A stretch of DNA of 64,000 nucleotides, from assembly GCF_035084215.1 (NCBI RefSeq), contig NC_090345.1, positions 3,906,001-3,970,000 of the forward strand. The letters are read 5' to 3'. The translations under genes were made by a program, and so were the position numbers. The notes under the pieces were generated by a model, which saw only the letters and a program-made list of their open reading frames with translations, was not told the origin of the DNA and did no database searches. Origin of the DNA: Heptranchias perlo (lineage: Eukaryota). Shown here in pieces: positions 4,068 through 59,415 of this stretch. Position 1 is the first letter of the stretch, and every line of letters begins with the position of its first letter.

Positions 4068-4858
4068 GAATGAGATGGATGAGAAGTGTGTTTTTGATGG
4101 GGTTCTGATTTGTGCCACTTCCTTCAAACGGGAGAGGCTGGGTATTGAAATAATTGCACGAGGAGCTCTGGTGTTGCTGTGCCACTCTAGTACCAGAGCC
4201 CCATCACTCCTGTCTCAAACACGATAGGTTTAAGTGATCGACAGTCCCAGGGGGGTGGCCAGGAGTCGGACTGACACAGCTGGTGGAGGCAGAGGGCAAT
4301 TTGTTGTGGAAGGTCTAGGGATTCCTCCATCTTCTGCTGTTCTTGCTGTTCCTATAAAGTGATAATTGCCAGAAAGCCTTCCGACATTCTGAAAGCTAAT
4401 GTGTCTTTCAGGATTCCCAGGGGACTGCCTAATGCGAAGGGTGAGTGACGGGATAGCACAACTGGATGGGGTTAAGCGAACAATGAGCTGGACTACTGTA
4501 ACAATATCCCGGGCGAAACACAGTGTATTACACTATATACAGGAGAGGAACTATACAGGGTAAAACACGGAGAGGGACTGACAGTCCTTGGACCCAGACC
4601 CCAGCAGCCCAGCATTTTGGTTAAAAAAATTCTTGTCTTTCGCTTGTTCCCTCTCTTGTGCTGGGGCACCTGCTCCCCTTCCGCTCCCCTCCAGTTCCTC
4701 ACCCTTTGTTAATTGTTTATCAGTGGGTATTGGCAAGTCATTCAGTTAAGGGGGATATCACAGCTGAGTCCTCATCCTAACACCCACATGGAAACTTTCC
4801 ACCAGGAACTCCTGCTGATTATTAACCCAGGGGTCCTGAGGGAGCCCGGAGCCCTCCA

Positions 4859-5631
4859 ACATTGCTTTGGTGATCCTGGGATATTGGTGCTCTGTATGGG
4901 TCAGCATTGCCCTGGTGATCCTGGGATATTGGTGCTCTGTATGGGTCAGCACTGCCCTGGTGATCCTGGGATATCGGTGCTCTGTATGGGTCAGCACTGC
5001 CCTGGTGATCCTGGGATATCCGTGCTCTGTATGGGTCAGCACTGCCCTGGTGATCCTGGGATATCCGTGCGCTGTATGGGTCAGCACTGCCCTGGTGATC
5101 CTGGGATATCCGTGCGCTGTATGGGTCAGCACTGCCCTGGTGATCCTGGGATATCCGTGCGCTGTATGGGTCAGCACTGCCCTGGTGATCCTGGGATATC
5201 CGTGCTCTGTATGGGTCAGCACTGCCCTGGTGATCCTGGGATATCCGTGCTCTGTATGGGTCAGCACTGCCCTGGTGATCCTGGGATATCCGTGCGCTGT
5301 ATGGGTCAGCACTGCCCTGGTGATCCTGGGATATCCGTGCGCTGTATGGGTCAGCACTGCCCTGGTGATCCTGGGATATCCGTGCGCTGTATGGGTCAGC
5401 ACTGCCCTGGTGATCCTGGGATATCCGTGCTCTGTATGGGTCAGCACTGCCCTGGTGATCCTGGGATATCCGTGCTCTGTATGGGTCAGCACTGCCCTGG
5501 TGATCCTGGGATATCCGTGCGCTGTATGGGTCAGCACTGCCCTGGTGATCCTGGGATATCCGTGCTCTGTATGGGTCAGCACTGCCCTGGTGATCCTGGG
5601 ATATCCGTGCTCTGTATGGGTCAGCACTGCC
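4859..5631. repeat. 45-bp minisatellite, 17 units
   Basis: Unit CCCTGGTGATCCTGGGATATCCGTGC(T/G)CTGTATGGGTCAGCACTG. Confidence 0.97.
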
Positions 5632-6908
5632 AAGGATGGTGCAATGAACAATTGAGCTATCGGGTGCTGTTTTTAAAAAAATTTGAGATGATTAAGAATG
5701 TATGAAGACCGTTGATTTTTCTTCCGGATTGGATCTGAGAAGCTCATAAAGCAAATTAAAAGGTGGGCCAGAACTGTCAGGGTTAAAGCCCCCACCCAGC
5801 AGGGAGATGCATTAGACTGTCCCTGGTAGAGAATGCATTAAAGGACACAGGAAGCAGCTTAATGGGCCTCTCCATAGTCTACAGCTCTCTCGATACTCAT
5901 TTCATCTCCAGCACTCATAGGAACACTGCTGTGTTCACTATCATCCAATCGTACTGGACTGTCAGCTGACTCCTCCGAGTTAATGAGGCCGCATTCATCA
6001 ACGCTGAGATTGTGAGTTTGCGTCTCCGGGCTGCCTAATGTTCCACGTGGTTCCCTGGCTATCACGTGCTCAATTTCCAGCTCTCTGTCCCCCTAAAACA
6101 TCCACTTCATGGTCCTAGTCCTCATCTTCAAATCCCTGGCACTCTTTCCACACCTACGATACAGACCTTTAAAACAACGAAAGGTGCAGGTGAGGTGGAA
6201 GCAAACCAGTTTCTTATCTTGGACAGTGAGCACAGGACGCAGGAAGACAGGTACAGAATTCTCGAGCCTTGAGTGAGATTGGATCAGACAGCACCGTTAA
6301 AAGGAGTGGGGTTGATATCTGTCGAGAAGAGGGATTGAGCGTTAGAAAGGAGAGAGTTGGGGGAAGGAGCTTATTATCTGTCAAGTAGGATATCAGCAGG
6401 TGTCTTGGGAGGGAAGTCAGTGATAGAATAATCACATGTGCTCTGGATGGAGTGGGCCTGATGGGCTGAATGGCCCCTCCTTACTTTGGATTTTGTTATA
6501 TTCTCATCAGCCTGACCCCCTCAAGTTATATGTACAACTGCACCCTTCGTGTCTAGATTTCTGCTCATCCCTCGCTCCCTCCATTCCACCATCATTGGTC
6601 GAGGCTTTAGTCACCTGCTCTCTGGAACTCCCATCTAAAACTATCCCCTCCCTATCCCTCTCCCTCTGAAAACTGCCCCCCTCGCTCCCCCTCGCTACCC
6701 CTCCACTCACTACCTCTGACCCTAACCCACTCCCCCCCGCTATCCCTCTCCCTCCAAAAAGTGCCCCCCCACTACCTCTCTCACCCTAACCCACTCCCCC
6801 TCACTATCCCTCTCCCTCCCAAACCCACTCCCCCTCACTATCCCTCTTGCTCCCAAACCCCGCTCCCCCTCCCTATTCCTCTCCCTCCCAAACCCCGCTC
6901 CCCCTTGC

Positions 6909-14691: not shown

Positions 14692-14865
<174 letters not shown>

Positions 14866-16089: not shown

Positions 16090-19000
16090 TTTTTTTTTTT
16101 TTATTCGTTCACGGGATGTGGGCGTCGCTGGCAAGGCCGGCATTTATTGCCCATCCCTAATTGCCCTTGAGAAGGTGGTGGTGAGCCGCCTTCTTGAACC
16201 GCTGCAGTCCGTGTGGTGACGGTTCTCCCACAGTGCTGTTAGGAAGGGAGTTCCAGGATTTTGACCCGGCGACAATGAAGGAACGGCGATATATTTCCAA
16301 GTCGGGATGGTGTGTGACTTGGAGGGGAACGTGCAGGTGGTGTTGTTCCCATGCGCCTGCTGCCCTTGTCCTTCTAGGTGGTAGAGGTCGCGGGTTTGGG
16401 AGGTGCTGTCGAAGAAGCCTTGGCGAGTTGCTGCAGTGCATCCTGTGGATGGTGCACACTGCAGCCACAGTGCGCCGGTGGTGAAGGGAGTGAATGTTTA
16501 GGGTGGTGGATGGGGTGCCAATCAAGCGGGCTGCTTTATCTTGGATGGTGTCGAGCTTCTTGAGTGTTGTTGGAGCTGCACTCATCTAGGCAAGTGGAGA
16601 GTATTCCATCACACTCCTGACTTGTGCCTTGTAGATGGTGGAAAGGCTTTGGGGAGTCAGGAGGTGAGTCACTCGCCGCAGAATACCCAGCCTCTGACCT
16701 GCTCTCGTAGCCACAGTATTTATATGGCTGGTCCAGTTAAGTTTCTGGTCAATGGTGACCCCCAGGATGTTGATGGTGGGGGATTCGGCGATGGTAATGC
16801 CGTTGAATGTCATGGGGAGGTGGTTAGACTCTCTCTTGTTGGAGATGGTCATTGCCTGGCACTTATCTGGCGCGAATGTTACTTGCCACTTATCAGCCCA
16901 AGCCTGGATGTTGTCCAGGTCTTGCTGCATGCGGGCTCGGACTGCTTCATTATCTGAGGGGTTGCGAATGGAACTGAACACTGTGCAGTCATCAGCGAAC
17001 ATCCCCATTTCTGACCTTATGATGGAGGGAAGGTCATTGATGAAGCAGCTGAAGATGGTTGGGCCTAGGACACTGCCCTGAGGAACTCCTGCAGCAATGC
17101 CCTGGGGCTGAGATGCTTGGCCTCCAACAACCACTACCATCTTCCTTTGTGCTAGGTATGACTCCAGCCACTGGAGAGTATTCCCCCTGATTCCCATTGA
17201 CTTCAATTTTACTAGGGCTCCTTGGTGCCACACTCGGTCAAATGCTGCCTTGATGTCAAGGGCAGTCACTCTCACCTCACCTCTGGAATTCAGCTCTTTT
17301 GTCCATGTTTGGACCAAGGCTGTAATGAGGTCTGGAGCCGAGTGGTCCTGGCGGAACCCAAACTGAGCATCGGTGAGCAGGTTATTGGTGAGTAAGTGCC
17401 GCTTGATAGCACTGTCGACGACACCTTCCATCACTTTGCTGATGATTGAGAGTAGACTGATGGGGCGGTAATTGGCCGGATTGGATTTGTCCTGCTTTTT
17501 GTGGACAGGACATACCTGGGCAATTTTCCACATTGTCGGGTGGATGCCAGTGTTGTAGCTGTACTGGAACAGCTTGGCTAGAGGCGCAGCTAGTTCTGGA
17601 GCACAAGTCTTCAGCACTACAGCTGGGATGTTGTCGGGGCCCATAGCCTTTGCTGTATCCAGTGCACTCAGCCGTTTCTTGATATCACGTGGAGTGAATC
17701 GAATTGGCCGAAGACTGGCTTCCGTGATGGTGGGGATATCGGGAGGAGGCTGAGATGGATTATCCACTCGGCACTTCTGGCTGAAGATGGTTGCAAACGC
17801 TTCAGCCTTGTCTTTTGCACTCACGTGCTGGACTCCGCCATCATTGAGAATGGGGATGTTTGCAGAGCCTCCTCCTCCCGTTAGTTGTTTAATTGTCCAC
17901 CACCATTCACGACTGGATATGGCAGGACTGCAGAGCTTTGATCTGATCCGTTGGTTGTGGAATCGCTTAGCTCTGTCGATAGCATGTTGCTTCCGCTGTT
18001 TAGCATGCATGTAGTCCTGAGTTGTAGCTTCACCAGGTTGGCACCTCATTTTTAGGTACGCCTGGTGCTGCTCCTGGCATGCTCTTCTACACTCCTCACT
18101 GAACCAGGGTTGATCCCCTGGCTTGTTGGTAATGGTAGAGTGAGGAATATGCCGGGTCATGAGGTTACAGATTGTGCTGGAATACAATTCTGCTGCTGCT
18201 GATGGCCCACAGCGCCTCATGGATGCCCAGTTTTGAGCTGCTAGATCTGTTCTGAATCTATCCCATTTAGCACGGTGGTAGTGCCACACAACACGTTGGA
18301 TGGTGTCCTCAGTGCGAAGACGGGATTTCATCTCCACGAGGACTGTGCGGTGGTCACTCCTACCAATACTGTCATGGACAGATGCATTTGCGACAGGTAG
18401 ATTGGTGAGGACGAGGTCAAGTAAGTTTTTCCCTCGTGTTGGTTCGCTCACCACTTGCCGCAGGCCCAGTCTAGCAGCTATGTCCTTCAGGACTCGGCCA
18501 GCTCGGTCAGTAGTGGTGCTACCGAGCCACTCTTGGTGATGGACATTGAAGTCCCCCACCCAGAGTACATTTTGTGCCCTTGCTACCCTCAGTGCTTCCT
18601 CCAAGTGGTGTTCAACATGGAGGAGGACTGATTCATCAGCTGAGGGAGGACGGTAGGTGGTAATCAGCAGGAGGTTTCCTTGCCCATGTTTGACCTGATG
18701 CCATGAGATTTCATGGGGTCCAGAGTCAATGTTGAGGACTCCCAGGGCCACTCCCTCCTGACTGTATATCACTGTACCGCCACCTCTGGTGGGTCTGTCC
18801 TGCCGGTGGGACAGGACATACCCAGGGATGGTGATGGAAGAGTCTGGGACGTTGGCTGAAAGATATGATTCTGTGAGTATGGCTATGTCAGGCTGTTGCT
18901 TGACTAGTCTGTGGGACAGCTCTCCCAATTTTGGCACAAGTCCCCAGATGTTAGTAAGGAGGGTCGACTGGGCTTGGTGTTTTGCCGTTGTCGTGTCCGG

Positions 19001-19410
19001 TGCCTAGCGGTCCGATGCCGGGTGGTCCGTCCGGTTTTATTCTTATTATGACTTTTCGTAGCGAGATTTTACAACTGAGTGGCTTGCTAGGCCATTTCAG
19101 AGGGCAATTAAGAATCAACCACATTGCTGTGGGTCTGGAGTCACATATAGGCCAGACCGGGTAAGGACGGCAGGTTTCCTTCCCTAAAGGACATTAGTGA
19201 ACCAGATGGGTTTTTACGATAATCCGGTAGTTTCATGCACACCATTACTGATACTAGTATTTTAATTCCAGATTTTTATTTTAATTAATTGAATTTAATT
19301 AATTGAATTTAAATTCGCCAGCTGCCGTGGCGGGATTTGAACTCATGACTCTGGATTTTAGTCCAGGCCTCTGGATTACTAGCCCAGTAACATAACCACT
19401 ATGCTACCGT
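16090..19410 (-). mobile_element. Near full-length non-LTR retrotransposon: tRNA-derived Pol III head + single APE-endonuclease/RT ORF + poly(A)
   Basis: A box TAGCATAGTGG (19406-19396), B box GAGTTCAAATCC (19344-19333). ORF motifs NIWGL, GDFN, SDH, PQGSVLGP, FADD, WNSLP. T-run 16090-16102 is the poly(A); AGATT duplicated at 16087 and 19411. Confidence 0.93.
16157..19003 (-). pseudogene. EN-RT ORF2-like frame broken by a single in-frame TAG (16586-16588)
   Basis: The 783-aa and 142-aa ORFs are in one frame; the related copy near 22350 has TGG at this position. Confidence 0.9.
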
Positions 19411-19912
19411 AGATTACACAAATTGGGGTTGTATTCTCCAGAGTTTAGGATGTTAAGGGGTGATCTGATCGAAGTTTATAAGATATTAAGGGGAACAGAT
19501 AGGGTGGATAGAGAGAAACTATTTCCGCTGGTTGGGGATTCTAGGAGTAGGGGGCACAGTCTAAAAATTAGAGCCAGACCTTTCAGGAATGAGATTAGAA
19601 AACACTTCTACACACAAAGGGTGGTAGAAGTTTGGAACTCTCTTCCGCAAACCGCAATTGATGCTTGCTCAATTGCTAATTTTAAATCTGAGATAGCTAG
19701 CTTTTTGCCAAACAAAGGTATTAAGGGATATGGGCCAAAGGCAGGTATATGGAGCTAGATCACAGATCAGCCATGATCTTATCAAATGGCGGAGCAGGCA
19801 CGAGGGGCTGAATGGCCTACTCCTGTTCCTATGTTCCTAAATACACAGCAGATCCAGCAGTGTCAGAGACAGCTCGAGCACAGAATCTTCATCGGAACCG
19901 TAAAACTAATTA

Positions 19913-20059
<147 letters not shown>

Positions 20060-21247: not shown

Positions 21248-22695
21248 TTTTTAAAAAATTGTTCTCGGGATGTGGGCGTCACTGGCTGTATTTATTGCCC
21301 ATCCCTGAGAAGGTGGTGGTGAGCTGCCTTCTTGAGCCGCTGCAGTCCGTGTGGTGAAGGTTCTCCCACAGTGCTGTTAGGGAGGGAGCTCCAGGATAGT
21401 GGCCCAGTGAGATGAAGGAACGACGATATGTGTTCACGTCAGGATGGTGTGTCGCTTGGAGGCGGTGATTGCTCTCTTGTCCTTCTTGAGGGTAGAGGCC
21501 CTATTGCTGCATTGCTTTAAACAGGATTTATAAAGTTACTGCCACCACAGTGCAGTTATAATACAGGCTGGGTGGAAGCATCAGATAGTCCAGAACATCT
21601 TACAAAAAAACATAACTGTGCCCTCAGCTCTGTGCATGGAGAAGGCAAAGTCTTACGAAGACAGACAGTAGTGCACCAGTTAACACAAGAAGTCAATCCC
21701 GGAAGAGAGGCAAGAGTAGCTACTCTCGACATCAAGGCAGCGTTCAACCAAGGGGCCCTCGCAAAACTGAAGTCAAATAGAAAACCCTTCAATAGATGGA
21801 GCCATATCTGACATAAAGGTTGTCAGAGGCCAATCACAGCCCCAGGACATCGCTGTAGGAGTTTCTCAGGGAAGCGTCCTTGTTCCAACTATCATCAACT
21901 GCTTCATCGATGACCTTCACTCCATCATAAGGTCAGGAACAGGACTGGTCACTGACAATTCCACAGTGTTCAGCTCCATTCACAACTCCTCTGATAATGA
22001 AGCAGCCCATGCCAGCCTACAGCAGGACCTGAATAACATCCTGGATTGGGCTGACAAGTGGTAGTTAATGACCATCTCCAACCAGAGAAAGCCCAGCCAC
22101 CTCCCTTTGACTTTCAATGGCATCACCATCGACTTCCCACCCCATCCCACCCACCCCCACATCCATCCAATATCCTGGGGATCACCACTGACTGAAAGCT
22201 GAACTGGATTAGCTACATCAACACTGTGGCTACAAATGCATGGCAGAGGCGGAGTACTCTGTGACACATATCTCATCTCCTAACCCCCTCAAAGCCTTTC
22301 CATCATCTACAAGGCCTAAGTAAGAAGTGTGCTGGCATACACAATGCTTGCCTGGCTGCAGCGTGTAAGATGTACAGGATGCACTGCAGCAACTCGCCAC
22401 GGTTACTTCGACAGCGACAGCACCTCCCCACCCCGCCTCGGGGACCAAGGGGAGCAATGTTGTGAGAGCACCATCACCTCCAAGTTGCCCTCCATCCTGT
22501 CTCGGGCATTTATCACCATTCCTTTGTCACTGGGTCAATATCCTGGATTTTCCCACCTAGCACCATTGTGGGAATACCTTCACCACACGGACTGCAAAAA
22601 GGAAGATTTACTCTCCTCCCCCGACCATCTCAGGTCAGGTAGGGATGGCCAATAAATGCAGCCTTTGCCCATTTCAACGACAATTTTTTTTTTTA
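21248..22695. mobile_element. Two degraded copies of the EN-RT family back to back (3' end on - at 21248-21560; RT to 3' end on + at 21660-22695)
   Basis: ATLDIKAAF and PQGSVL-like remnants plus the shared 3' tail, in opposite orientations. Confidence 0.75.
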
Positions 22696-32132: not shown

Positions 32133-32400
32133 GATGATCACACGATGGGTTACTGGGCTTATTAAATAGCAAATCTCCCCTAGTGTTGCTCCTGGTGAGT
32201 CAGATCCCTGCCTGTGTTGTGTTGGTTCTTCCCCCTCACCTCCTCTCCCCCTCCCCCACCCCCATTCAGCTTTGCCTCCTCCACGCCAAGCAGAGCAAAT
32301 GTGTGGTGGTCCCGGCTCCCTTCCAAGGTCAGTAGCACATCCCACCAGTCCATGGCATTTGACATTTATTTAACGTCCTTTCTTTATCCCGTTTCTCCAG

Positions 32401-32903
32401 GGTCCTGGTTGAGTGGAGTGACGGCTTACATCGTCCAGGCAGGGATTGGAAAGGCCAGGACACAAATCTTTCGGAAACAGATTGCACAGAATGGCGGTGG
32501 TGTCAGCCTTGCTTTCTCCCCCGCCGTTACCCATGTGATCATAGACGATGGGATGGATTGCGACCGTGCGTGTCGTCTCTTGAATCTGGAGGCACTGCCT
32601 CCCAACGTCCAGCTGGTGAGGTCCATGTGGCTGAGTTTATGCATCTCGGAGAGAAGAGTTCTGAGCACTGCAGGCTACAACGTCTTCATCCCGGACAAAT
32701 ACCTGCAGCCAAAGCAGGTCAAGGCTCAGGGGTCAGGAGTTGAGGGTCAGTACAGTAACACGGGTCTAGAGATCAACAGCCATTCAGGGACACAATCAAA
32801 GTCCGAGTTGAACTGTAAAAAAGCAGAAGCACCTTTACTTGAACAGCCGCGAGAGGCAGCAGCTGAAGACAACACTGGAGCCGTACGAGCCTCTGCAGCA
32901 CAG
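32401..32903 (+). CDS. POLL: POLL coding exon 2 (BRCT domain + linker)
   Basis: ctccag acceptor, CAG|gtagag donor; AGIGKARTQIFRKQIAQNGG..VTHVIID..WLSLCISERR is the Pol lambda BRCT domain. Confidence 0.93.
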
Positions 32904-32924
32904 GTAGAGTGACCCTGTCTCCTT

Positions 32925-33263
32925 ATCTCTGTAACCTGCTCCAAACCTACCCTCCCAGATCTCTGCGTTCCTCTAATTCTGGCCTCTTGCGCACCCCCAC
33001 TTCCTTTGCCCCACCATTGGCGGCCGTGCCTTCAGCTGCCTAGGCCCAAGGCTCTGGAATTCCCTCCCTAAACCTTTCCGCCTCTCTCTCCTCCTTTAAG
33101 GCGCTTCTTAAAACCTACCTCTTTGACCAAGCTTTTGGTCACCTGTCCTAATATTCCCTTATGTGGCTCGGTGTCAAATTTTGTCTGATAATCGCTCCTG
33201 TGAAGCACCTTGGGGATATTTTACTACGTTAAAGGCGCTATATAAATGCAAGTTGTTGTTGTT
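32925..33263 (+). mobile_element. L2-type LINE 3' end whose tail is shared with the Deu-SINEs (another tail at 1-70)
   Basis: ...TGGAATTCCCTCCC..AAAGGCGCTATATAAATGCAAGTTGTTGTTG tail. Confidence 0.7.
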
Positions 33264-34374
33264 GTCTACTTTCACTCTGTGAAGAATTTGCTAAAAGTCT
33301 CCACCTGTACTTTTTTCATCAGTCCTGCTCCCACAGAGTATCACAGGGCACTGTACCTGAACTGTATCATCTTATATCATGTTGGCATAAGGCAACAGCA
33401 GTGCCCAGGAACCGTTTGCTTTCCATTTTTTTTGCCCATTCCTCCTTTCTTGTCCTGAAGGGACTGTCTGTTGTTGTGTGCAGAGCCACTGGTACTGACA
33501 GCCCTCCGGTACCTCACCTCAGTGGCCATTCTGCATGTGTGGGTATCAACGCTGAGTGTTTGTGGCCAGCCAGTGACGGGGGGCGGGGGGAAAGCATCAC
33601 ATCTCAACCCTGTCCTCACCCAATGTCATCACACACAGATTTCCCAACAGGAGTCATTGGATAGCCTTCCAGAGTGGGTAAAAACCAACTGGAATTGGAA
33701 CCAGCCTTCAGGAGTGGGTTAAAAACCATCCGGAGTGGGAACCAACCTTCCAGAAAGGAAACCATGGCTAATTCCCGCCCCCCTCCCCACCAACCTTGGC
33801 CAGTTGTATCACCACAACTATTACCCTGGCTGAGACCACCTAACTCAGCCGAGACCAGGGATTGAACCCAGGACCTTCCAGTCTGTGTTACTCAGTAAGA
33901 CACGTGGGGCCGGTATTGAGCAAGCCGGGGGGTTTTGGGCGGAACGATCGCACCATGTCCACGGTCGGGCCTCATTTGAAGGTGATCGGCAAGCTGCCGG
34001 GGCTGCTCCACAGAGGCGAGCAGAAGTCGTCACTTGAGGTGAGGGGGGGTGTGGTGAATCCTGGCGGCTACAGGGGGGCACCGGCTTACTGTCTCTCTAG
34101 TTTTTCAGAGGGTCCTGCATTGCTTCCAGTGGAACACGAACATTGCATCGGGTTCCTGCGCCCGGTGTAGGAACCCGCTTGAAATATTTCAATAAGGTTC
34201 CTGCCTGTCGAACGCCCATTTCCAGCCCCATTCGAAAATCGAATCGGGCTGGTCCGCTGATTGCAGGTTTTAAAAAAAAAAGGTACATTTCTCCTATCGA
34301 CCGCCCTGTTTTTCTGCGTGAATGAGGCGATCAGGAGACAAAAATTGCCTCTCATGGTACATAGAGTCAGCCAA

Positions 34375-34800
34375 TAATGAGTGGTAGCACTCTTACCCCT
34401 GAATCAGAAGGTTGTGGGTTCAAGTCCCACTTCAGTGCAATACTGAGGGAGTGCTGCACTGTCGGAGGTGCCGTCTTTCGGATGAGACATTAAACCGATG
34501 CCCTGTCTGCTTCTCTCGGGTGGATGTAAAAGATCCCATGGCACTTTTTCAAAGAAGAGCAGGGGAGTTCTGCCCAGTGTCCTGGCCAATATTTATCCCT
34601 CAACTAACAACACTAAAAAAAAAATTATCTGGTCATTACCTCATTGCTGTTTGTGGGATCTTGCTGTGTGCAAGTTGGCTGCTGCGTTTCCTACATTACA
34701 ACAGTGACTACAATTCAAAGCACTTCATTGCCTGTAAAGCGCTTTGGGATATCCTGAGGTTGAGAAAGGCGCTATATAAATGAAAGTTCTTTCTTTCTTT
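34375..34800 (+). mobile_element. Deu-domain SINE
   Basis: Full head, core and tail with (TTTC)n end. Confidence 0.85.
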
Positions 34801-34925
34801 CATTCTTTCTTTTACATTTACCAACTGAAGCAATGGGGAGAGTTGGGATCCAGCTATGTGTAAATGTGATGTGTTGGGGAAGTTCCCAACCCTTACACTG
34901 AGTGCTCTCTCTGATGTCTCCCCAG

Positions 34926-35234
34926 TTATCCGAAGACGGAAATGGAAGTGACACTGAAGACGATGGAGTCTCCGAACGTGACCTGCAAGCACTGATCCGG
35001 GGGAGCAGCCATTCCGCCAGTGCCCTTGACCCCAGCGAGCCGGCCATCAGTGGGAAGTGGGTGTGTGCCCGGTCATCCCAGAGCAAGAAGCAAAACCACA
35101 ACAAGCCCATCACAGACAAGCTGGAGGTTTTGGCGACTGCGTACACGCATCAAGGCGACAAGTGGAGAGTGCTGGGGTACTCCAAGGCCATCAACGCCCT
35201 AAAGAGTTACCAGAAGCCAGTGACGTCCTATGAG
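34926..35234 (+). CDS. POLL: POLL coding exon 3 (linker + 8-kDa dRP lyase domain)
   Basis: [55 protein letters not shown]; cag/gtaaaa. Confidence 0.95.
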
Positions 35235-35299
35235 GTAAAATCTTTGTGTCTTTCCTCCTTTCCTTCCAAAAAAAGGAGGTTTCCAGTTAAATCACACAT

Positions 35300-35405
35300 T
35301 GGGGGTCATTATAACCTGACCCGCCCGGCGGGTAACAGACGGGATCAGGCTGTTTTACACTCGCCTGATTTCACCCTCCATTGACCTCATGTTAAAATTA
35401 CCCCA
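35300..35405. mobile_element. Small MITE-like element
   Basis: Imperfect terminal inverted repeats TGGGGGTCATTATAAC / GTTAAAATTACCCCA. Confidence 0.4.
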
Positions 35406-35889
35406 TTATATATGATTTTGACTTTTGATATATTTCCCTCCCCACCTCCTCTCTACACTTCCGTGGGGCCCAGTGGCCCAGGGGCTAGTGAGGCCACCTG
35501 TTGCCCAGGCTGGTATCAGCTAAGTCAGCAAAGACCAGAAATCTACCCTGGGGCTTTCCTGGTCTGTGTGGCTCAGTACCAGACTCGCTGATGCATTTTC
35601 TTACTGTACCATGGTTTTTGGGGGGGAAGGTGGGGGGGGGGGCGGGGGGGGAGAGAGGGTCTCAAGTCTGGTTTCTGTCAAAAAATGTTGTTTTCAATAA
35701 GTAGAGGCTTATATGTGCTGTCTTTATATTGGCTCACAGTGTAAGACCCCACAACGTTCAGAGAGAGTAGGAGGGAATATAAGAACTGTAGGAGTTTACA
35801 ACACAGGAGGGCATTCGGCCCATCGTGTCTGGGCCAGCGCTTTGGTAGAGTAATCCAAAACTAATCCCATTGCCCTGCTCTCTCACGAA

Positions 35890-36412
35890 TGCCATACACA
35901 CCATACCCTTTATCCATATACACTACCACACCCACCGCATTCCCTTTATCCATATACACACCTACCGCATTCCCTTTATCCATATACACACCTACTGCAT
36001 ACCCTTTATCCATATACACACCTACCGCATTCCCTTTATCCATATACACCACCACCGCATTCCCTTTATCCATATACACCACCACACCTGCTGCATACCC
36101 TTTATCTATATACACACCTACTGCATACCCTTTATCCATATACACACCTACTGCATACCCTTTATCCATATACACACCTACTGCATACCCTTTATCCATA
36201 TACACACCTACTGCATACCCTTTATCCATATACACACCTACTGCATACCCTTTATCCATATACACACCTACTGCATACCCTTTATCCATATACACACCTA
36301 CTGCATACCCTTTATCCATATACACACCTACTGCATACCCTTTATCCATATACACACCTACCGCATTCCCTTTATCCATATACACCACACCTACTGCATT
36401 CCCTTTATCTAT
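35890..36412. repeat. 30/33-bp minisatellite derived from CR1 RT sequence
   Basis: Unit TACACACCTACTGCATACCCTTTATCCATA; the minus strand reads (YMDKGNAVGV)n. Confidence 0.93.
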
Positions 36413-59157: not shown

Positions 59158-59415
59158 AGGGTAAAGTAGCCTAGTGGTTTTATAACTGGACTAGTAACCC
59201 AGAAGTCACGAGTTCAAATCCTACCATGAAACTGAATTCAAAAATCTGGTAATTTGTGGGATAGTACAAGAAAACGACCATGAAAACTGCTAACTGGTTC
59301 ACTAATGTCCTGCAGGGAAAGGAACCTGCCACCCCTCCCTGGTCTGGTCTACTATTAACTCCAGTCCCAATCTACAAGGTTAGCTCAGGGGAATTGGGGA
59401 TTGGCAATAAATACA
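59158..59415 (+). mobile_element. Second short partner SINE
   Basis: TAGCCTAGTGG, GAGTTCAAATCC, CTGGTTCACTAATGTCC body and GGGATTGGCAATAAAT tail. Confidence 0.78.

Follow-up and report, generated by a model that had tools for sequence, protein, structure and literature searches.

A tRNA-headed LINE family of Heptranchias perlo with an AUG-less reading frame and a putative anticodon-like start element

The element, its locus and the window copy

The window, a 64,000-nucleotide stretch of the 3.25 Gb Heptranchias perlo genome (NC_090345.1, positions 3,906,001 to 3,970,000, forward strand), harbors a 3.3 kb element that runs on its minus strand from 19411 to 16090. The element sits in an intron adjoining a DPCD exon (19916–20047, minus strand; Pfam PF14913), in the same sense as DPCD, is inserted into an antisense CR1-like fragment, and is bounded by a candidate 5-bp target duplication, AATCT (19415–19411 and 16091–16087). 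A stretch resembling the next DPCD exon lies at about 14740–14840 on the minus strand and has no Pfam match. Elsewhere in the window are further fragments of the same LINE family or its leader (1732–2129, 21261–22669, 59294–59369, and 46905–46942; 69–97% identical), exon-like frames on the plus strand with a Pfam HHH_8 domain (32199–35384), which we take to resemble DNA polymerase lambda, and tandem repeat arrays that give rise to long open frames in several phases (4713–5705, 35849–36454, and 40471–41846).

A single ORF of the element encodes both an APE-type endonuclease domain (18341–18952; Pfam PF03372 and PF14529), which contains no Met, and a reverse transcriptase domain (16751–17497; PF00078), and the element is thus classified as an APE-type LINE. 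Among protein fragments with a named source, the nearest come from Heptranchias and Mobula, at 79–82% identity. The family is dispersed, with 6,814 exact matches genome-wide, and shows 5′ truncation and an A-rich 3′ end; in the window copy, the natural stop, a short 3′ tail, and poly(A) occupy 16090–16159. Upstream of the ORF, again on the minus strand, lie a tRNA-derived head (19333–19411), an AT-rich spacer whose length differs among copies (19241–19332), and a conserved leader body of approximate boundaries (19075–19240), which an older family and contigs from four other organisms also possess. The last part of this body corresponds to a predicted hairpin (19075–19100) with a seven-nucleotide anticodon-like loop, CUAGCAA (19090–19084), and also contains an upstream AUG (19095) and a UAG (19089–19087). 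The leader measures about 350 nt from 19411 to the start proposed below (19062), somewhat more than the roughly 330 nt first estimated.

The initial annotation described the frame of this copy accurately: it is open from 19003 on the minus strand, the codon at 18937 is a GTG positioned after the NIWGL motif, and the first in-frame ATG lies downstream of the SDH motif. The frame extends to 16586 (805 aa), and this ATG is at 18331–18329 (codon 225, VEMK). A run of 224 Met-free codons before it is unusual, given 16 Met among the 805 aa of the frame. The N terminus quoted at the time, APDTTTAKHQAQST, is not that of the family: the window copy lacks 10 nt at 18963/18962 (a site ambiguous by a few bases), and this deleted form has five exact matches in the genome vs 5,547 for the undeleted form. 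The usual frame reads a stop followed by NLATKSHNKNKTGRTTRHRTTRHRTRQRQNTKPSRPCKVLLTNIWGL, with 42 open codons there in 24 of the 30 top protein matches. An indel had been offered as the way in which this copy might have lost its AUG; the indel is present but removes no AUG. Because of this deletion and a nonsense codon, TAG at 16588–16586, where intact copies encode Trp and run on to 931 aa counted from NIWGL, the window copy is dead and unable to make the protein; it appears to derive from a recently amplified single-ORF LINE.

A family-wide frame without a usable AUG

A protein search gave 57 scored candidates, most of which harbor a 973-codon stop-to-stop frame, and in all 30 copies fetched the first Met is residue 208 from NIWGL, a codon that is ACG in the oldest subfamily. 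A conserved in-frame AUG just upstream of NIWGL, against which the reading of an AUG-less start had originally been staked, is absent among the copies compared, and the consensus contains no usable AUG. As judged from these sequences, the missing AUG is real and family-wide, and the case is stronger at the family level than the single copy showed. An in-frame AUG is found 51 codons before the NIWGL frame, followed by the UAG noted above and by a UAA (19071–19069; TAC in the oldest subfamily, which is blocked by UAG only). Among 6,881 exact matches, 3,635 carry both stops, 1,007 the UAG only, 1,855 the UAA only, and 384 neither, and the doubly open form is not enriched (odds ratio 0.75). Young copies have the TAA in 59 of 61 cases, and in the older family 26 of 28 readable copies have GUG in place of the upstream AUG; that family also has ACG where the second upstream AUG (19124) stands. 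In an unbiased sample of copies chosen solely by their endonuclease start, 30 of 30 carry the leader or a truncation of it, 17 reach the head, and none has any other 5′ sequence.

Two candidate explanations were rejected on these data. Selection for stop loss after the upstream AUG is contradicted by the lack of doubly open enrichment and by UAG variants that are unlinked to other changes, and a conserved uORF or +1-frame product shows no selection signal and has an AUG that is not conserved.

To obtain estimates of selection, we compared 163 copies (173 spanning the junction, with 10 duplicates dropped), part of them chosen by stop-codon patterns, contrasting changes present in 8% of copies or more with those private to one copy and excluding variants of intermediate frequency. 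In the endonuclease before the first AUG, shared changes comprise 7 synonymous and 1 nonsynonymous vs 116 and 358 among private changes (p = 4e-4); in the basic N-terminal extension (ATKSHNKNKTGR...; 18953–19062, frameshifted in the window copy), the counts are 4 and 1 vs 15 and 76 (p = 0.005). With hypermutable sites left out, neither of the two remaining frames has a comparable excess; when CpG and CTAG sites are included, the p values weaken to 0.005 for the endonuclease and 0.013 for the extension, and one control frame reaches 0.048. The old-TAA and young-TAA subfamilies differ by eight synonymous changes and one replacement (p = 7e-5), which argues that source elements were selected for the protein while the upstream AUG was blocked. 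Counting against the selection argument, in-frame indels of 3 and 15 nt fall in tandem repeats, and 1-nt insertions in the A-run directly after the GCU discussed below are common to nine copies. Taken together, the AUG-less endonuclease and basic extension are under purifying selection, from which we infer that the protein is made. Given such selection upstream of the first AUG and a consensus with no usable AUG, the full-length protein would require a non-AUG start, in line with the original proposal.

The tRNA-like head, the leader hairpin, and distant relatives

The head harbors A and B boxes (19406–19396 and 19344–19333) at the 5′ end, the layout of a Pol III type 2 transcript, and is present on every full-length copy examined; three G precede TACGG at the start of 48 of 67 heads. 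Its Rfam tRNA match is weak (E 0.53, below the gathering score), and ARAGORN calls no tRNA in it. The sense strand is free of T4 runs in 18 of 19 full-length copies, vs about 20 A4 runs. The probability of finding no T4 is 0.0075 by base shuffling, 0.001 under uniform synonymous codons, and 0.09, which is not significant, under the codon usage of the ORF itself, so that significance depends on the null. A CR1-like control family from the same genome has 11 T4 runs in 2,180 nt at similar T content, and a distant relative of the family, L241, has 7. Both the head, with its likeness to a tRNA, and the missing T4 runs fit the Pol III RNA suggested in the initial annotation, and Pol III transcription of the family is likely. 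To our knowledge, a protein of 970 residues is not what one expects a Pol III RNA to encode.

The hairpin with the loop C-U-AGC-A-A precedes an in-frame GCU-ACN by 21 nt, and loop bases 3–5 (AGC) are complementary to the GCU (19062–19060), which may serve as a codon mimic or as the first codon. Five pairs make up the upper stem in the older family, as in an anticodon arm. The older family and the contigs of four other organisms retain GCTAC at the same distance, and the preceding 7 nt differ. The protein is conserved from this point as Ala-Thr (ATK in the young, old, and older families), which places a conserved structured element where protein conservation starts; the codon directly after GCU is ACG in young copies, whereas older subfamilies have ACA or AAA there. 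No variation in the AGC/GCU pairs occurs in any of the DNA compared. In the shark-type families, loop positions 37–38 often mismatch and leave three to four pairs, at or below the four required in IAPV (PMC4132737). Covariation in the leader, suggested at the outset as a check, gives a split answer: the stem covaries, and the loop–codon pairs never vary, so that covariation supports the hairpin and not the pseudoknot. The minimum free energy of the 206-nt leader is no better than that of shuffled sequences (z −0.38). A generic scan for any anticodon–codon hairpin matched 7 of 18 more distant loci, and the general motif was therefore rejected as not specific.

Read from the sequence, the leader hairpin and a stem in the 3′ tail have a similar short stem sequence, a likeness that possibly reflects chance or a shared protein-binding shape.

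The hairpin idea was recorded before distant relatives were fetched. Two metagenome relatives, L241 and L244, share 42% and 40% protein identity with the family and are close to each other, and thus count as one lineage. They carry loops CCAGCUA and CUAGCGA, respectively, on stems of 10–12 bp, 23–24 nt before an in-frame GCU ACA; stem pairs are changed from C-G to G-C and from U-A to G-C or G-U, and four (L241) or six (L244) loop pairs are possible. The chance of a motif of this type is 0.1–0.3% per 300 nt. Protein conservation begins with ATS in both. T4 runs are present, and no tRNA head is detectable. Neither has an AUG at the upstream AUG site of the family; in-frame AUGs occur within the extension, five codons before the motif in L241 and at 24 codons in L244. 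For the part of the leader that precedes the hairpin, homology to L241 and L244 was considered and rejected as weak or absent (22 and 94 of 500 shuffles were as good).

Four further relatives, 55–66% identical to L241, have Ala-Thr 34–35 residues before the motif, where protein similarity starts. Back-translation, which speaks to compatibility only, reveals that three of five peptides allow a 5-bp stem and a YY(A/G)GCNN loop 21–22 nt before the Ala, as do 1 of 19 control peptides and 0–4 of 40 shuffles each. P0180 hints at a GGC loop. Ala-Thr is missing in 44 of 48 relatives with enough upstream sequence, and the protein of a sponge subclade starts with Met. In the tree, the shark family and L241 fall in one 14-row clade and are not resolved as sisters. 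A metagenome scan with the window protein and a viral-contig scan returned no matches.

Initiation without an AUG and the relation to SINEs

The best explanation of these data, toward which we lean with reserve, is a Pol III-made RNA with a non-AUG start set by the tRNA-anticodon-like hairpin and the GCU. The LINE RNA would be transcribed by Pol III from the tRNA-like head and hence be uncapped; the AGC in the loop of the anticodon-arm-like hairpin would pair with the in-frame GCU 21 nt downstream to form a pseudoknot; and this tRNA mimicry may load the ribosome. Translation without an AUG would start at the GCU or one codon after, with Ala, or Thr/Lys, as the first residue.

In outline, this arrangement resembles pseudoknot I (PKI) of the dicistrovirus intergenic region (IGR, type 6) IRESs, with an anticodon-like loop hairpin, a downstream complementary codon, and a non-AUG start. 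Types 6a–6d most commonly start with GCU and type 6f with ACA (PMC12221177), and in IAPV unpaired C-U precede the pairing loop bases (PMC4132737). As in type 6, the ORF lacks an AUG and is both open and conserved starting with the codon at the putative PKI or the one following it. Unlike the IGR IRESs, the host is a cellular retrotransposon, and only three to six loop pairs are possible. No shared helices corresponding to PKII/PKIII, SLIV, or SLV were recognized in the leader, Rfam gives no IRES match to E 5 in the leader, and the L1.1 motifs quoted in PMC10275262 were not seen by eye in 19240–19100. As judged from these comparisons, the element is similar to PKI in outline and falls outside the type 6 IRESs. 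The occurrence of IGR IRESs in non-LTR elements is raised only as a possibility in PMC3894237.

Initiator tRNA might instead decode a near-cognate codon that ribosomes reach by scanning or by internal entry, with the hairpin binding the element's own protein or stabilizing the RNA and the GCU kept for the protein; we consider this unlikely, though credible. Young copies place ACG right after GCU with a G at −3, the pseudoknot pairs do not covary, and the 3′ tail has a similar short stem; however, the codon is ACA or AAA in the older subfamilies and ACA in L241 and L244, none of them near-cognate, and the fixed loop size, spacing, and loop–codon complementarity would be left unexplained. It is also rather improbable that ribosomes translate a short uORF (AUG-GCC-UAG, or MAQQATQL, which stops 6 nt short of the GCU) and then reinitiate with no AUG, as has been proposed for LINE-1 ORF2, the hairpin only positioning or stalling them. 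Termination–reinitiation is reported for SART1 and LINE-1 (PMC5972666), and the AUG of young copies is in a strong context, in frame, and ends close to the conserved start region, but the older family has GUG at this site and ACG at 19124, L241 and L244 have no AUG at the site, and ribosome loading would still be needed on an uncapped RNA.

We give little credence to a start at the upstream AUG or GUG with readthrough of the UAG (and UAA), or to a −1 frameshift from an overlapping uORF. In favor, the AUG and the ORF share a frame, the oldest subfamily is only UAG-blocked, 30 of 83 unbiased copies have another base for the U of the UAG, and the extension is open in the +1 frame; against this, nearly all young copies carry the TAA and selection went on in the TAA lineage, doubly open copies are not enriched, the UAG variants are unlinked to other changes, and the uORF frame is free of purifying selection, its AUG not being conserved. 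Most improbable is that headed elements are untranslated and the protein is supplied in trans by rare AUG-bearing copies or a sister LINE whose 5′ end differs. In favor, neither stop is present in 384 exact matches, and the copies examined are only a small part of the more than 6,800; against this, all 30 unbiased copies with an endonuclease start have the same leader or a 5′ truncation of it, TAA-blocked lineages show purifying selection, and the doubly open copies examined are older (84–97% identical).

Like single-ORF LINEs of the L2/CR1 group, the family harbors APE and RT domains, no ORF1, and a poly(A)-ended tail common to SINE-like forms; unlike them, it has a tRNA head and an AUG-less start; the tree used here contained no labeled references. 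Unconventional initiation of ORF2 is a feature of other non-LTR elements, including LINE-1 and SART1 (termination–reinitiation), and AUG-less translation is linked to a ribozyme in RTE and R2. Unlike all of these, the present family has no ORF1 and no conserved upstream AUG, and no HDV-like ribozyme was recognized by eye or by Rfam. RTE-1_DAn is likewise a LINE with tRNA-like sequence (PMC5786205), but the family studied here belongs to a different clade. A literature search that excluded Repbase and most subscription papers found no paper describing the element, and an earlier description is possible.

The leader body presumably resembles the Deu domain of SacSINE1 and AmnSINE1; a search of the literature for its sequence motif gave no match. 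A tRNA head, a conserved body, and a LINE-derived tail are shared with SacSINE1 and other DeuSINEs of cartilaginous fish (PMC5499810, which names L2-2_CM as the SacSINE1 partner); unlike in DeuSINEs, head and body lead into a full endonuclease–RT ORF. DeuSINEs are short, noncoding, and non-autonomous, and this element is 3.3 kb long with intact ORFs, although short derivatives exist. The leader is joined to the LINE tail in 38 of 57 older-group copies at many different breakpoints, and direct leader–tail junctions are also found in contigs of other organisms. These short forms fit the internal-deletion model of SINE bodies (PMC5786205) and the head–Deu–L2 tail layout of SacSINE1 (PMC5499810). 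For the head, the opposite order is possible, in which the LINE captured the 5′ end of a SINE. The presence of the hairpin in headless distant LINEs suggests that the 3′ part of the leader body came from a LINE. A broader reading, which we regard as possible though doubtful, holds that the family is an autonomous Pol III LINE with an IGR IRES-like, tRNA-mimicking pseudoknot ancient in its lineage and that the 3′ part of the conserved Deu domain of vertebrate SINEs is this translation element, inherited by SINEs via repeated internal LINE deletion.

We know of initiation by anticodon–codon mimicry in viral RNAs only, and a cellular element using it, if confirmed, would bear on the open origin of the mechanism. 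According to PMC4824008, it is unknown what conserved SINE bodies, the Deu domain among them, do and where they come from, and PMC5786205 finds LINE origins of SINE bodies for RTE and Vingi only. The family offers a direct test of this question, since the element spans 40 nt, intact copies number in the dozens, and the compensatory mutations are clear.

At 19089, C, G, or A replaces the loop U in 30 of 83 copies of the unbiased sample and in 7 of 26 young ones, a rate far above that of other CTAG sites (p = 9e-5), with no linkage to other variants; U is still the majority in every subfamily. One possibility is an RNA modification misread by the reverse transcriptase. More generally, in two LINE families unrelated to each other, young copies are mutated at the central TA of CTAG at a per-site rate of 4–6% on both strands, about twice the CpG rate (2.3–2.5%) and more than 10 times background; a literature search found no paper on CTAG TA hypermutability. 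A strand-specific, RNA-level cause of the TpA hypermutability was rejected, the bias at the CTAG T (13% vs 4%) being seen in the first sample only. It was not repeated in 29 young copies (5.1% vs 6.2%) or in 29 CR1-like copies (4% vs 4%), and TpA hypermutability is therefore treated as a DNA-level effect.
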